The notes under the pieces are model-generated. The model was not told the DNA's origin. It was given only the letters and a program-made list of their open reading frames with translations, and searched no databases. The position numbers were made by a program, and so were the translations under genes. Positions 50 through 14,674 of a stretch of DNA of 29,037 nucleotides are shown here, piece by piece; positions within the stretch are counted from its first letter, which is position 1; every line of letters begins with the position of its first letter. Location: the UHGV virus genome UHGV-0149439; one strand, given 5' to 3'. This DNA comes from a virus.

Positions 50-289
50 TTAATGCCACGTCTTTTTGCTCAGGCTTGTTATAGCTGAAATCGCATGTGC
101 TGAATCATCAAAAAGCCGGGTCAGTACAGGAACCCACTGCCTGTTTTTGTACTCAAGCACCTGATGTCCAGGCAGGTCTTTGCTGATGATGGCAAATGTC
201 CTGAGTTCAGGCGTTGGAACAGGGAGTTCGGTGCCAGGCGGGAAATATATTCTTACCCTGGCAATAATCATGTTGTCCATGCTCATCAT
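50..289 (-). CDS. Hypothetical small protein (79 aa from ATG at 289; ORF track opens at GTG 304), directly downstream of the dinI-like gene
   Basis: ATG at 289-287 overlaps the dinI-like stop in an ATGA arrangement (translational coupling); no family recognised. Confidence 0.45.
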   Translation of the reverse strand: MMSMDNMIIARVRIYFPPGTELPVPTPELRTFAIISKDLPGHQVLEYKNRQWVPVLTRLFDDSAHAISAITSLSKKTWH

Positions 290-525
290 TCGTTCACCAG
301 CCACATATCGGCTTCTTCAAACATCTCTTCCAGCATACGGTTAAGTCGTTCTTTTTCGGTCTTTGTGCTGTCGCTGTTTAATGCGTTAGCCTGCATTGGC
401 TTAACTCTCACGTCGGCGTCGGGGAAGATCCGGTGTACGCGCTTTGTCAGCTCGTTAAGAATGATGTTTCTTGCGCCCGGTAGCCCCTCGACATTACGCT
501 TGTCATAAACCAGTTCAACGAACAT
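286..525 (-). CDS. dinI: DinI-family protein (79 aa)
   Basis: Internal Met of track ORF 286..732; translation MFVELVYDK...EEADMWLVNE matches recalled DinI length and C-terminal acidic W-x-V-x-E ending; perfect LexA box 19-38 bp upstream. Confidence 0.8.
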   Translation of the reverse strand: MFVELVYDKRNVEGLPGARNIILNELTKRVHRIFPDADVRVKPMQANALNSDSTKTEKERLNRMLEEMFEEADMWLVNE

Positions 526-543
526 AAAAGCACCCCGGAAAAT

Positions 544-563
544 TACTGTGATTGTATACAGTA
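544..563 (-). promoter_or_regulatory. LexA (SOS) box TACTGTGATTGTATACAGTA upstream of the dinI-like gene
   Basis: Exact CTGT-N8-ACAG core with TA flanks, matching the enterobacterial LexA consensus. Confidence 0.75.
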
Positions 564-587: not shown

Positions 588-645
588 TCAAGGTGAGCGG
601 AGCGCGAAAGGGGGATGTGTTTTTGTTACCCTTAGTTACAAATAG

Positions 646-679
646 AAAAACCCCAGACCGTGAGATCTGGGGTTCTTTT
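646..679. terminator. Bidirectional intrinsic terminator-like hairpin
   Basis: 7-bp stem ccccaga/tctgggg (651-657 / 666-672) flanked by an A-run upstream and a T-rich run downstream. Confidence 0.5.
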
Positions 680-835
680 AAAGTGCACGTGCACTTCACG
701 TGTATATTTTTGTCTTTTCTCGGTCTGCGCACTGTCTGGTCAGTGTCCTTAAGTGGCTGTTTTTATTGCCGCTGTCCGGTTGCAGTCCTATCAAAAGTGC
801 TGGCGGGAGTTGAACCAGCGTCCGTAATCATTTAA

Positions 836-1615
836 CTATCTGTTTTTGTTGAAATCATGTTCATCTATAAAATCCGCGTAGCTTTTGCGTATCCTTTGCT
901 GTATCTGCGCAGTCTTACTATTTTTTGATACTTGGAACATTAAAGCGCCGCGATAAGTATTTTCGTAGGGTTGCTTTCCGTACTCGCGTAGATGATATTG
1001 GCTTGAGTAACTTATAGAAAATTTCTTTCCCTTTGCATCTGAGAAAGTGATTTTTAATGACGGGCCATCAACAATTGTGGGTATTTCACCATTCATAATA
1101 CGTAATGAATTTAATTCGTTTAGCAATATAATTAGAAAAACTGGAGGAAGGATAGTTCTGATTGGTTTTTTTTCTATATTTATGGGTAGCAGATAATTAT
1201 GGGAGTAATAATTTTCTAAGCTATATGGAATGGTTATTCCACCCCCGGATATTTTTATTGATTTATTGTTTGAGTTTTTTCGAGTTTCATACTTTAAATC
1301 AAAAATCTTTGAAATGGAATTTAATTTTTCTTCGGCTGGATATTCCCAAAATAGCTTTACATTTATGGCAGTGCCTAACCCTGAGTTAACTAACTCAGGT
1401 TTGATATCATCTATGGGTATTCTAGCTAGTGGCATGGCTGAATAATGATGCTCATTCATTGAAACTGTGAGCAAATCCAAATCATTAATTAATAATTGTG
1501 GTCTAATTGATTCCTTTCTTTGAACTACTGTTTGCCTAATTGCAAGGTATGCCGCAATTGCTGATAATGTACTAGCAATCAATCCACCGTATGTAACAAA
1601 ACTAGTGTCTGCCAT
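836..1615 (-). CDS. Hypothetical membrane-anchored protein (259 aa), low-GC cargo gene next to the integrase
   Basis: Long ORF with clearly lower GC than flanking genes (by eye, not computed); N-terminal hydrophobic helix (GGLIASTLSAIAAYLAI); no recognisable family. Confidence 0.7.
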   Translation of the reverse strand: MADTSFVTYGGLIASTLSAIAAYLAIRQTVVQRKESIRPQLLINDLDLLTVSMNEHHYSAMPLARIPIDDIKPELVNSGLGTAINVKLFWEYPAEEKLNSISKIFDLKYETRKNSNNKSIKISGGGITIPYSLENYYSHNYLLPINIEKKPIRTILPPVFLIILLNELNSLRIMNGEIPTIVDGPSLKITFSDAKGKKFSISYSSQYHLREYGKQPYENTYRGALMFQVSKNSKTAQIQQRIRKSYADFIDEHDFNKNR

Positions 1616-1623
1616 GTTGTAGT

Positions 1624-1650
1624 ATTCCTGCCTAAAAATCAGGCAGGAAT
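1624..1650 (-). promoter_or_regulatory. Perfect 10-bp-stem hairpin between the integrase stop and the 259-aa gene start, covering its Shine-Dalgarno
   Basis: attcctgcct / aggcaggaat arms with a 7-nt loop; start codon 8 nt beyond the stem on the mRNA; no U-tract. Confidence 0.4.
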
Positions 1651-1656
1651 TATTTG

Positions 1657-2832
1657 TCAGTTAGTTTTTTTATTCAAGTGGGTAACAGATGTATTGTTAT
1701 CGTATGCTTTAAGATACCTACCGTAATGTCGAAAAAGCATCTCTGGCCCCTTATGCCCCATTTGCCCCGCCAGCCAGAAAAGGTTAACTCCTCGACTGAT
1801 TAGGCGTGTGGCATATGTGTGACGGGTCTGATAGGGATTGCGGTACCTGATACCGGCTTTCCGTAGCGTTGGCACCCACGCTTTTTTCCTTATTGCATCC
1901 GCGCTGGCCCATGGCTTGTATGTCTTTGGATCCTCAAAGACACAGCCATCTTTCATGAAAGTAAAGGGCTTTTGATCGTTAAGTGCGATTATCGCTTCCT
2001 CAGTTAATTCAACTTTGCGAGTTCCCGCCTTAGTTTTCGTACCTTTTGTCACGCCTGAAACACTGGCGCTCTGTACATGCGCCGTCTTCTCAATGAAATC
2101 AATATCCCTCCAGCGGAGTGCGCATAGTTCCGAGCTGCGAAGTCCTGTCTGGATCGCAAATCTGAATAAGTTCTTCCACTGCTTATTGCCTGTTGATGTT
2201 AACAGCGCGTTCACCTCAGCTGGTGACAGCGGATCAACCACATAACTACTTTCTGCCTCTGATTTATCACTTTGGTACCGTGAAGCTGTCACCAGTGATA
2301 CAGGGTTAATCTGAAGCACACCATCCGTCACCGCCTCATCCAAAGCTGAACGCAGGAATGACAGTTGGTTTCGGATAGTCTTTAATGTTGTTTTCTGGTT
2401 CTGGATCCATGTCTTCAGCGCGGCCGGCGTCAACTCACTTGCAGGAAAAATATGAAGTGATGACAGCGCGCTTCGGCATTTCTTATATCCACCAATTGTT
2501 GAAGGGGATAGTTTTCTCGTTTCACAGATAACCAGATACTCGTCCAGGTACATCTTCACCGTTTTGCCTGCGGCAGCGTTGCCGAAAATTTTTAACCGGG
2601 TAGAACGGGGAAAGTATTCTGCATAAACAAATGTCCCCCTCTCGATCTTGTTATGGATTTCGCCGAGTGTGCGCTCGGCGTATTTGATGTTTTTAGGAGT
2701 TACGTCCAGATTAGAAAGGGGCTCACGGCATTTAACCCCTTTATAAGTGAAAGTAATATTGATGGTTTCGCCGTTGCGGTGTTTCCTGATGGTTACGCCG
2801 CGCGGGAGCTTAGGCGATTCTGTCGTGCCCAT
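1657..2832 (-). CDS. int: Tyrosine site-specific integrase (lambda Int family), 391 aa
   Basis: Size and C-terminal catalytic region typical of tyrosine recombinases (R...H-x-x-R...Y arrangement, HTYATRL... context); GAGG Shine-Dalgarno 8 nt upstream; excisionase immediately upstream. Confidence 0.93.
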   Translation of the reverse strand: MGTTESPKLPRGVTIRKHRNGETINITFTYKGVKCREPLSNLDVTPKNIKYAERTLGEIHNKIERGTFVYAEYFPRSTRLKIFGNAAAGKTVKMYLDEYLVICETRKLSPSTIGGYKKCRSALSSLHIFPASELTPAALKTWIQNQKTTLKTIRNQLSFLRSALDEAVTDGVLQINPVSLVTASRYQSDKSEAESSYVVDPLSPAEVNALLTSTGNKQWKNLFRFAIQTGLRSSELCALRWRDIDFIEKTAHVQSASVSGVTKGTKTKAGTRKVELTEEAIIALNDQKPFTFMKDGCVFEDPKTYKPWASADAIRKKAWVPTLRKAGIRYRNPYQTRHTYATRLISRGVNLFWLAGQMGHKGPEMLFRHYGRYLKAYDNNTSVTHLNKKTN

Positions 2833-3062: not shown

Positions 3063-3614
3063 TTAGTTGGTTTTCTTTAGTCCAAAGTAAAGTCCTGCGG
3101 CTATGCTTATTATGCCTGCAGCTAGAACACCAATAATCCAATAAAATAATGTTATAAATCGTTCTAACTGTTTGTCTGAGTAATCACTCATAACTTTTAA
3201 TGATGTGCTCAATGACTCCATATCTTTCTTCATGAGAGGTAAAGCCATTGCTTTTTCAGGACTATTTCCAAGTATATTATTAAGCGTGGATATCTTTTTC
3301 TGTATGTCATCAACTTTTACTTCCAACGCTTCTATTCGTATATTATCTGGGGTAAGGGTTGAAGTATTTTTTAAGGCACTTAACGTGTTTCTTACCTGAA
3401 ATATCTCATCCCTATAGGTGCTTATTTCGTTCATGAGATGATCTGTATCTATTTTTTTATCATAAGATGTAGGTAATGAAACATTTACTATTGAAGTGGC
3501 TTTATCTTTTATTTCTAAGGTCAAAGGAATGAGTATCGATCCCAAAGCGACCAGCATAAGAATAGGGGATAGTATTGCTATACTCTTTGCTAATGCGTTA
3601 CTTGTAAATGACAT
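3063..3614 (-). CDS. Hypothetical two-TM coiled-coil membrane protein (183 aa), low-GC
   Basis: Hydrophobic helices at both N- and C-termini with a charged heptad-like middle; GAGGGA Shine-Dalgarno before the ATG; TTGCAA -35-like element at 3651-3656. Confidence 0.7.
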   Translation of the reverse strand: MSFTSNALAKSIAILSPILMLVALGSILIPLTLEIKDKATSIVNVSLPTSYDKKIDTDHLMNEISTYRDEIFQVRNTLSALKNTSTLTPDNIRIEALEVKVDDIQKKISTLNNILGNSPEKAMALPLMKKDMESLSTSLKVMSDYSDKQLERFITLFYWIIGVLAAGIISIAAGLYFGLKKTN

Positions 3615-13356: not shown

Positions 13357-13380
13357 AAACCCGCCTATGAGCGGGTTTTT
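13357..13380 (+). terminator. Intrinsic terminator downstream of the Q-like gene (tR'-like)
   Basis: Stem aaacccgc/gcgggttt with loop ctatga, then a T-run. Confidence 0.55.
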
Positions 13381-13391
13381 GCGTTATAATT

Positions 13392-13423
13392 CACCTATTT
13401 AAATCAATTGTTTTAAATAGGTG
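13392..13423 (+). promoter_or_regulatory. Perfect 12-bp inverted repeat CACCTATTTAAA-N8-TTTAAATAGGTG covering the Shine-Dalgarno of the 283-aa cargo gene
   Basis: Arms at 13392-13403 and 13412-13423; the AGGTG SD-like element lies inside the 3' arm; ATG at 13428. Confidence 0.45.
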
Positions 13424-13427
13424 AAGT

Positions 13428-14279
13428 ATGAAAATAGATAATCCCGAAAATCCACTTGAACGAAACGATTTTACGATGGATGACTTCCATCACTACTTAA
13501 GGGAGTTTGATAAAGCTGTATGTGAAGCGAATGCTGTAAGTCAGGGGGTTGGTGTGCGAATGGCTGAGGCTTTTAAAGGGTGGTCTACATACATTTTTTC
13601 ACGAATCTGCATTCATGCTTCAATAATGATTTCCAACGTACCAAGATCAAGATGGGCTAAGCGGGATTATGACTTTTGGGATTTTTCGGCGATTGCACCT
13701 CATGTAAGAGCGATTCTGGAAGCTGAGTTATTGTTTATGTATTTATCTGAGAATCCAGATTCAACTGAGGAGTGGTCAGCAAAGTTGAATGTCATGCACA
13801 TGAATGATTGTGTAAAGAGAATTGAGTTATTTACATCTAGTGATAATACGAAAGCATTGGATTTTTATCATGAACAAAAAGATATAATAACTGAGAGACT
13901 TAATAACAACCCTGTTTTTTTATCCCTTGAACAAGGAACCAGAAAACGTTGCTTGACTGGAAAAGCGCTTATGATTCCAAATCGAGATGAGTTATTGGTT
14001 AAACTGGGAAAAGATCCAAAGTCATTTAAAATAATGTTCGATTTTTTATCTCATTATACGCATATACTACCTATGTCATATTATAAAATGGAGCCAAACG
14101 GAAGGGGAACTGGTTGTTTTAACAACTATGACTTTGGCTATATGATTATGGGGATGATTATTTGTACTGAATCCTTGACTAAGTGTACAGATAGATTAGT
14201 AGAACTTTTTCCTGATGTTAGACGGTTGCGAAAAGGAACTAAATCAAAATTCACGTTAGGGCCTAAACCAACAAAATAA
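13428..14279 (+). CDS. Hypothetical protein (283 aa), low-GC cargo gene between the Q-like gene and the lysis cassette
   Basis: Long ORF with markedly lower GC than neighbours (by eye); no TM segment or family recognised. Confidence 0.75.
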   Translation: MKIDNPENPLERNDFTMDDFHHYLREFDKAVCEANAVSQGVGVRMAEAFKGWSTYIFSRICIHASIMISNVPRSRWAKRDYDFWDFSAIAPHVRAILEAELLFMYLSENPDSTEEWSAKLNVMHMNDCVKRIELFTSSDNTKALDFYHEQKDIITERLNNNPVFLSLEQGTRKRCLTGKALMIPNRDELLVKLGKDPKSFKIMFDFLSHYTHILPMSYYKMEPNGRGTGCFNNYDFGYMIMGMIICTESLTKCTDRLVELFPDVRRLRKGTKSKFTLGPKPTK

Positions 14280-14468: not shown

Positions 14469-14585
14469 ATGAAAGAAGGGGATTACTGGATTCAGCATGT
14501 GTGTGTTGTACAGGTGGCGTTTTACACCGATGACACTGTAGATGACCTGAAATGGGGAAAACAATCAAAGGAGTCTGGCACCTAA
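14469..14585 (+). CDS. Candidate small ORF (38 aa, MKEGDYWIQHVCVVQVAFYTDDTVDDLKWGKQSKESGT)
   Basis: GAAGGA a few nt upstream of overlapping ATGs; terminator-like hairpin downstream; weak support. Confidence 0.2.
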   Translation: MKEGDYWIQHVCVVQVAFYTDDTVDDLKWGKQSKESGT

Positions 14586-14674
14586 CCAGAGTCGATGATA
14601 TTTGCCATAACAGAGAGGCCGAAGTGCTTGAAGGTCCTCTCGCTCCATTAATGTAAGTAACCGTTCATACTTCG

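Follow-up and report, generated by a model that had tools for sequence, protein, structure and literature searches.

Morons and lysogenic-conversion cassettes are well described in lambdoid phages. The concept comes from HK97 and HK022, and in SfV- and CPS-53-type prophages gtrABC lies between int and att. Membrane proteins of superinfection exclusion (Sie) include P22 SieA, T4 Imm and HK97 gp15. In phage lambda, the tI/sib element retroregulates int; sib lies beyond the phage attachment site (attP) and is part of the int regulatory circuit. For IS10/Tn10, Davis, Simons and Kleckner reportedly described in 1985 how fold-back inhibition keeps the transposase from being translated on read-through transcripts. 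Prophage hotspots are already known to carry morons or cargo genes (PMC9122126, PMC10121019), and a tmRNA integration hotspot (#9) of E. coli is on record (PMC10121019). BstA (10.1101/2020.07.13.199331) and Tha (PMC11087260) are single-gene abortive-infection or exclusion proteins of prophages that spare their own phage. We analysed the virus genome UHGV-0149439 (29,037 nucleotides (nt), hereafter the window) and, in it, a gene of 259 amino acids (aa) next to the gene of a tyrosine integrase (int). This gene belongs to a large unnamed family, occupies a variable cargo slot between int and attP, and has a conserved RNA hairpin over its Shine-Dalgarno sequence (SD).

We surveyed 80 IMG/VR prophage loci whose int is 87-92% identical to that of the window, and 73 of them were assessable. 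A member of the family stands directly after int in 31 of the 73, and the other 42 lack it. Among these 42, the distances from the int stop codon to the attachment core, a copy of the 3' end of ssrA (the tmRNA gene), fall into at least six discrete classes: 80 nt (empty), about 1440-1490, about 1636, 2047, about 2230-2270 and about 2840-2850 nt. The occupants include DarT with a NADAR antitoxin, a 595-aa ABC ATPase (PtuA/AriA/GajA-like matches) with a 293-aa partner, a ParA-like three-gene set, a DUF4760 protein and several unknowns. This alternative cargo is all 33-42% guanine plus cytosine (GC). Among annotated records, phiNP holds the ATPase, E. coli H2 holds DarT/NADAR, and the slot of E. 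coli AZ146 has a 259-aa family member 25% identical to that of the window.

The slot is empty in two IMG/VR prophages with the same integrase (L046 and L055), where the ssrA core is found 80 nt past the int stop. Therefore, the integration module needs no cargo. These comparisons demonstrate that the int-attP interval of this phage lineage is a slot for variable cargo. The original prediction had taken the integrase-proximal end as a position of defence cargo and had asked whether the gene varies among related prophages while int is conserved. Both ideas agree with the survey: the sister prophages carry DarT-NADAR and PtuA/GajA-like ATPases, and the family comes and goes beside a nearly constant int. 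The commonest occupant is this family, and its dominance of the int-attP(ssrA) slot in this lineage is new here.

The gene lies 41 nt downstream of int, and a small xis-like open reading frame (ORF) lies upstream of int. Its GC content is 34.1%, compared with 47.4% in int and 51.2% in the whole window. The lowest-GC 780-nt stretch of the window (825-1604, 33.5%) coincides with the gene. It had been called the most AT-rich stretch, and the minimum is indeed there, but it is practically tied with two other cargo ORFs, 3031+ (33.7%) and 13605+ (34.1%). The low GC and the sole annotation found anywhere, 'hypothetical protein', could suggest a decaying remnant or a non-coding AT-rich spacer. However, the ORF is full-length in all relatives, and 686 profile matches share its conserved motifs. 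Likewise, the ratio of non-synonymous to synonymous divergence (dN/dS) is 0.25 against locus L007 and 0.11 against locus L012, and the predicted fold is confident. These conservation data effectively refute a remnant, which is hardly credible for this ORF. At the level of sequence comparison, they show a real gene under purifying selection, which agrees with the earlier view of a true and undegraded cargo gene, of unknown family, close to the integrase.

A hairpin precedes the gene in every family-bearing locus, with at least 11 stem sequences. In the window, it begins 6 nt past the int stop and ends 8 nt ahead of the ATG. It reads AUUCCUGCCUGA-UUU-UUAGGCAGGAAU on the gene strand, and AGGCAGGAA is its 3' arm. 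The original prediction described a perfect 10-base-pair (bp) hairpin with an SD. The 10 perfect Watson-Crick pairs and the AGGA in the 3' arm stand, but a G-U and an A-U pair extend the full stem to 12 bp. The 85-nt region folds with a minimum free energy of -20.1 kcal/mol (z = -4.5), which none of 200 shuffles equals. On both strands of the whole window, there are just four perfect inverted repeats with a stem of 9 bp or more and a 3-10 nt loop. They are two T-tailed terminators, the hairpin of the 259-aa gene and the hairpin of an ORF at 13428.

The stems differ among loci and include CCTGCC/GGCAGG, CCCTTC/GAAGGG, CCCTAC/GTAGGG, CCTCAC/GTGAGG, CTCTGC/GCAGAG and CCCCG/CGGGG. In an alignment of 12 sequences, both sides changed in 8 of 12 pairs, a level of covariation that no shuffle reached. 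In the same alignment, 89.5% of the cells were paired, versus 39-51% when the partner was slid. In the 44 loci compared, 26-28 upstream regions and 20 arm pairs are distinct, and every one folds, with -10 to -22 kcal/mol. The purine-rich arm is always the 3' one and ends 5-9 nt ahead of the start codon in all variants. A covariance model matches 29 of the 30 family-bearing loci searched (the exception is L039) and none of 13 loci with the same integrase and other cargo. Since the model matches family-bearing loci only, the hairpin belongs to the 259-aa gene and not to int. Comparison of the loci thus shows that the hairpin over the SD is real, conserved, covarying and cassette-specific. An RNA thermometer was also considered and was ruled out, since the stems are perfect and stable.

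The repeat could have another role. It stands shortly after the int stop, its opposite strand has a T-rich tail flagged as terminator-like, and as a perfect palindrome it overlaps a promoter-like site. On these grounds, it might be a 3' element of the int mRNA (terminator, stabiliser, RNase III site or lambda tI/sib-like element) or a DNA operator, and not a mask of the ribosome-binding site (RBS). We consider this very improbable. The repeat is absent from the sister prophages that have an 87-92% identical int and other cargo, and the gene strand has no U tract (tails ACUACAAC, AUCAAG and similar). An operator with at least 11 stem sequences would demand equally many cognate DNA-binding proteins. 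A further point against it is the purine-rich arm, which is always the 3' one and always close ahead of the start codon. Like lambda tI/sib, it is a stable hairpin shortly downstream of int. Unlike sib, it stands before attP, is missing with other cargo, contains the SD of the next gene and has no U run. On the int side of attP, it cannot tell prophage from phage transcripts as sib does.

A putative promoter abuts the stem. The hexamer [AG]ATAAT stands directly 5' of the stem in 28 of 28 distinct upstream regions, and TTGAAx with an exact 17-nt spacer of variable sequence was seen in 12 of the 13 loci first examined. Sister prophages with other cargo lack the TTGAAx -35 in their int tails. In the window the -10 ends at 1649, and from its position we infer a transcription start 7 ± 2 nt beyond it, inside the 5' arm (about 1644-1640). 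Any start at least 5 nt beyond the -10 excludes the bases 1645-1648, which pair with AGGA. The gene's own mRNA would therefore lack these bases, and we read the hairpin as an insulator that would close the SD only on int read-through transcripts. The earlier notion of a hairpin-masked RBS is thus half right: the hairpin over the SD is real, but a constitutive mask is unlikely, given the conserved -35/-10 that abuts the stem. Transcripts from the own promoter would leave the SD free and give steady low expression, lysogen included. Read-through transcripts from int, made on infection or induction, would carry the whole hairpin and bury the SD. The gene would in this way be translationally insulated from the early-left transcription of the phage.

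The same layout could also have the opposite effect. In all loci, only 6 nt (range about 6-15) separate the int stop from the stem downstream, a distance that a terminating ribosome can span. Moreover, the order xis-int-gene and a gap of 40-44 nt are invariant in family-bearing loci down to about 25% identity. If there were no effective promoter, the SD would stay closed until the ribosome finishing int melted the stem. The protein would then be made only together with the integrase, and it would serve the phage in the establishment of lysogeny or in excision rather than the lysogen. Such translational coupling seems unlikely to us. The -35/17/-10 arrangement is conserved around a variable spacer and is cassette-specific, same-int sister prophages do without the gene, and distant homologues are not adjacent to integrases. 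At 13428, the hairpin layout comes after a terminator and not after the end of a translated ORF.

This second locus has the same design, as the original prediction had noticed. TATAAT (13385-13390) abuts a perfect 14-bp stem (13391-13404/13413-13426) with AGGTGA in its 3' arm; the ATG follows 2 nt later, and z is -5.4. The gene encodes 283 aa and is placed between the Q antiterminator and the lysis region, after a terminator (13357-13380). A tblastn search of the phage collection with its protein gave no match at E<=1e-5. The source of read-through would be here the Q-antiterminated late transcription. In this one genome, there are two independent SD hairpins that abut a putative promoter. A conserved, covarying hairpin of this kind, with the design duplicated at a second cargo gene, is new here. 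The coordinates are given in Table 1.

Table 1. Location of the features discussed in the 29,037-nt window (all positions on the numbering of the window).
Feature	Position	Strand	Basis and remarks
Other attP arm	618..770	.	Two more TGTTTTT[AG]TT copies, 618-630 and 758-770
Intrinsic terminator	646..677	-	Terminator scan; strong, 14-bp stem and T run; on the ssrA-sense strand, about 120 nt past the core
attP core, CGGACGCTGGTTCAACTCCCGCCAGC	799..824	-	Similarity break and sequence; copy of the ssrA (tmRNA) 3' end
259-aa cargo gene	836..1615	-	ORF list; ATG start, stop at 836-838
C-terminal helix, RIRKSYADFIDEHDFNKNR	839..916	-	Codons 234-259; overlaps the presumed attP arm
Soluble part	920..1498	-	Codons about 40-232; predicted immunoglobulin (Ig)-like beta-sandwich, then beta-alpha-beta-beta-beta unit; strongly divergent centre of the cassette
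Predicted N-terminal membrane-anchor helix	1538..1600	-	Codons about 6-26; small-xxx-small motifs abundant
RNA hairpin	1624..1650	-	12 bp, 3-nt loop; 3' arm holds the SD
SD core AGGA	1626..1629	-	10 nt upstream of the ATG; pairs with 1645-1648
-10-like hexamer AATAAT	1649..1654	-	Promoter scan; last two bases form the stem base
Tyrosine integrase, 391 aa	1657..2832	-	Arm-DNA-bind_2 and Phage_integrase domains (Pfam)
-35-like hexamer TTGAAT	1672..1677	-	17 nt from the -10, within the last int codons
Second AT-rich cargo gene, 283-aa ORF	13385..14279	+	ATG at 13428; weak DUF5677 match (E=2e-4)

Directly downstream of the 283-aa ORF, there is an Rfam match to isrI, an Hfq-binding small RNA (14564-14660, plus strand, 47.5 bits versus a gathering score of 45). 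A third AT-rich ORF (183 aa, 33.7% GC, 3063-3614, minus strand) is found upstream of xis. It has a hydrophobic segment at each end and a coiled-coil-like middle, and its matches were non-significant coiled-coil ones only (PbeC, LmuB).

The window is in the phage (attP) configuration, and the 259-aa gene fills the interval from int to the attP core, ending 11 nt from it. This follows from a break in similarity, from matches to phage ends and from the annotation of a related phage. All related loci stop resembling the window exactly at 799. Past the core, integrated relatives read ...CCAGCTCCACCA (TCCACCA) and then host DNA, whereas the window reads unrelated ACTTTTGA. The records of the phages PhiR12 and phiES15 match the segment 608-828 at their ends, and the phiES15 record is circular and begins at its annotated attP. 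The record of phage LLS has attP and a 'tmRNA pseudogene' annotated 20 nt beyond its homologue of the 259-aa gene. LLS integrates in the 3' end of ssrA (PMC12315714), and a term search of the text of that paper found no mention of gp31. No tRNA or tmRNA gene was found in the window, where ssrA is present only as the 26-nt copy of its 3' end.

The motif TGTTTTT[AG]TT has three copies, which flank the core on both sides. With lambda attP as the model, they are candidate arm-type sites of the integrase. The third copy (TGTTTTTGTTG, 841-851) encodes a conserved FNKN within the last codons of the gene. DNA similarity among otherwise unalignable alleles resumes at 914-919, about 80 nt before the stop, and continues to 799. 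In this C-terminal stretch, the synonymous divergence (dS) is 0.27-0.43, versus 0.7-1.05 in int. The conserved C-terminal peptide is probably dictated, in part, by the arm-type sites of Int. Downstream, the terminator signal available to the gene is the one listed in Table 1 or, in lysogens, the native ssrA terminator. From the geometry, the former would end the transcript of the gene in the attP configuration. In the lysogen it would follow the reconstituted ssrA, and it probably acts there as a replacement terminator.

Two further observations concern this site. Across attP from the 259-aa gene, there is a DinI-like gene (286-563, minus strand, Pfam E=2.5e-23), and a consensus LexA box, TACTGTGATTGTATACAGTA, stands ahead of it at 544-563. 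In several enterobacterial genomes (L007-L011, L021, L024), a P4-type integrase island shares the ssrA site with the prophage, the two being in tandem. The defence-like genes of these islands are Mrr_cat, a reverse transcriptase with STM3845, AAA ATPases and HerA/DUF87.

The cassette and the integrase have different histories. In the compared loci, int is 84-93% identical to that of the window, and the centre of the protein (aa 46-232) is 23-36% identical in most. For the more distant pairs, the synonymous divergence of this centre has reached saturation. When the window is compared with L007, dS is 0.28 in the 259-aa gene and 1.05 in int. In this pair, the gene is much younger than int, and cassettes therefore move between integrase backgrounds. 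The last 10-12 or so int codons (1657-1695) differ among prophages and co-vary with the type of downstream cargo (loci L034-L113), which places one exchange junction inside the int coding sequence. Of 5426 complete genomes, 50 have the E. coli allele with at least 99% identity, and there are no intermediates; one of these 50 genomes is an O25b:H4-ST131 strain. As judged from the alignments, the pattern is one of deep discrete alleles shuffled by recombination and not of rapid adaptive change. Pervasive positive selection was also considered, and it was ruled out by dN/dS values well below 1. The locus shows a mode of cargo swap, with junctions within the last int codons and the attP arm. Because of the latter junction, part of the protein C-terminus is probably set by the DNA of the recombination site.

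The protein matches phrog_7259 over its full length (E=1.6e-48, residues 4-259), a family listed as function unknown. An exhaustive profile search (alignment A1) returned 686 representatives (clusters at 50% identity) at E<=1e-3, of which 159 reach E<=1e-10. Among the 150 matches listed, nearly all have 220-290 aa and one common architecture, with a few shorter fragments. A word-indexed search gave 11 close clusters, in Enterobacter, Yokenella, Citrobacter and Salmonella. A first profile search of genome contigs with alignment A1 gave no confirmed relative. By tblastn, the 259-aa protein found LLS gp31 only among phages and nothing among plasmids. The sources of the family members label the protein 'hypothetical protein'. 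A literature search for this family, its accession numbers or hairpin-insulated morons found nothing relevant.

Scans of the protein and of divergent members against Pfam, NCBIfam and PADLOC gave no match, and neither did a PDB sequence profile search with the family. A BFVD search returned two unnamed viral proteins of about 250 aa. The AlphaFold2 (AF2) model of the 259-aa protein is confident (pLDDT 92.3, pTM 0.80). For its soluble part, a likeness to Longin/roadblock and Ig-like (CARDB/LEA-2/TMEM106B-like) folds is tentative. The soluble domain had been assigned to no family beforehand, and it keeps that status, with no named match in the profile searches or in BFVD; no housekeeping family appeared in Pfam, NCBIfam or the PDB profile search either. 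A family that is large, unnamed and structurally unmatched is itself new here. Two candidates were set aside. Mycobact_memb gave one weak match in one of 40 members scanned and was disregarded, and phiES15 gp01, the slot occupant in phiES15, is not a family member (hhalign probability 0.4%).

The members share one order of parts: after a short N-terminal tail come a small-residue-rich hydrophobic helix, the segment Q-x3-QR-x2-S-Y-K-P-x-L and a soluble part. In the soluble part, the motifs are N-[IV]-G-x-G-x-A, W, D-Y-x-L-P and Y-x-D-I-x-G. In 143 sequences, N77, G79 and A83 are invariant, and Q32, R33, P39, G81, W90, P144, P157 and D193 are at least 90% conserved. The anchor helix and the juxtamembrane segment that follows it (Q-x3-QR-x2-S-x-[KR]-P-Q-L) are the best-conserved part of the family, and the soluble domain is the most divergent. 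Regarding the predicted single N-terminal transmembrane helix, it is clear across the family (mean Kyte-Doolittle score 2.04) but borderline in the member of the window (1.48). The mean number of Lys plus Arg is 0.29 before the helix and 3.7 after it, and 98.6% of the 143 members show the bias. Because basic residues are scarce before the helix and abundant after it, the sequence predicts an N-out/C-in topology with a cytoplasmic soluble part.

We propose that the 259-aa gene is a self-contained, moron-type cassette in the int-to-ssrA-attP slot of a lambdoid temperate phage. Its order would be the last int codons with the -35, the -10 abutting the hairpin, the SD in the 3' arm and the ORF running into the attP arm. 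In this proposal, the cassette is autonomous, with low expression in the lysogen and protection from early-left read-through. The protein would be tethered to the cytoplasmic face of the inner membrane through its conserved, small-residue-rich N-terminal helix. Its most likely role would be to guard the lysogen from other phages, through exclusion or through abortive infection at the membrane. The divergent soluble part could be the recognition module, and the conserved anchor with its juxtamembrane segment the acting module. An acting helix of this kind would explain why the gene is kept from over-expression in lytic growth. We give this whole reading a probability of about 50%. What points to a defence or exclusion role is context only.

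Several results weigh against this proposal. PADLOC-DB v2 gave no family at E<=1 for the protein of the window and none for the E. coli and LLS alleles, so the PADLOC scans offer no homology to any known defence or exclusion protein; nor did any Pfam, NCBIfam or PDB entry resemble it. No sign of positive selection was seen, and the divergence is ancient, with dS saturated. Distant members (Leptothrix, Methylomonas, Halomonas, Gallionella and an alphaproteobacterial metagenome-assembled genome) are solitary, among housekeeping genes and with no recurrent neighbour. Defence is therefore not indicated family-wide. The anchor of the window's own member is, as said, of borderline hydrophobicity. 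Regarding the regulation, the promoter call is made from consensus hexamers only, and the region has no excess of promoter-like sites (8, versus 8.8 in shuffles). Moreover, with the int stop so close to the stem, terminating ribosomes could open the hairpin, which would give coupling and not insulation.

Part of this evidence fits another role for the protein. With the same cassette and regulation, it could be a factor of lysogenic conversion or envelope physiology, that is, a membrane-tethered adaptor that modifies a host membrane process. The distant members, as single genes in housekeeping loci, favour such a role. So does purifying, not diversifying, selection, and so does the absence of catalytic motifs, where the invariant N, G, A, W and P are typical of a binding scaffold. 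On the other hand, the other slot occupants in this phage lineage are defence-type systems, and deep discrete alleles are shuffled among nearly identical integrases. One metagenomic distant member also adjoins a BsuBI/PstI restriction-modification system, and one locus has AbiEii nearby. We see this role as possible, though a good deal less probable than protection of the lysogen.

A bolder form of the protective reading is tentative and, in our opinion, rather doubtful. The gene could be the founding case of a single-protein, membrane-acting prophage immunity family, with an oligomerising anchor as effector and an exchangeable Ig-like/alpha-beta phage sensor. Promoter-abutting hairpins that mask the SD on read-through transcripts only would be then a general device of temperate phages to silence potentially self-harming cargo in their own lytic transcription. 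If the protein is protective, a widespread family would be added to the prophage defence repertoire (the 686 clusters). The family is the commonest occupant of the slot in enterobacterial ssrA-integrating lambdoid prophages, and one allele of it is present in 50 complete E. coli genomes. Whatever the function, the promoter-hairpin layout would be a simple answer to the problem of limiting accessory-gene over-expression in strongly transcribed phage operons.

Compared with the described systems, the locus has partial likenesses to each. Like BstA, Tha and the Sie proteins, the 259-aa gene is a single gene of a temperate phage with a predicted membrane location; the own lytic cycle must be spared, and the hairpin would serve for it. 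It differs from them in having no sequence or fold similarity. Furthermore, the self-sparing would act at translation, and not through a DNA element (aba) or the timing of the life cycle. The resemblance to IS10 fold-back is in the regulation. In IS10, the partner of the RBS lies upstream of the own start, and external transcripts are translationally silent; with the predicted start, the 259-aa gene would follow this logic. Unlike in IS10, the start site here is predicted only, the gene is phage cargo and not a transposase, and the stem abuts the -10.

As in the prophage hotspots (PMC9122126, PMC13586616, PMC10121019), a fixed site between conserved phage genes receives unrelated AT-rich systems that interchange, and known defence systems (DarTG, ABC-ATPase) are among the occupants. 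Unlike in those hotspots, the phage group here is lambdoid, with a 391-aa Arm-DNA-bind_2 integrase that inserts in ssrA. Its slot runs from the int 3' end to the attP core, and an unnamed family is the commonest occupant (31/73). The locus also resembles the morons. The 259-aa gene is patchily present in close phages (31/73), deviates in GC (34.1%), lies beside int/att and, by its sequence signals, has an apparent promoter and terminator of its own. It differs from them in three respects: the protein belongs to an uncharacterised family, the hairpin joined to the promoter is predicted to silence read-through translation, and the ORF enters the attP arm.

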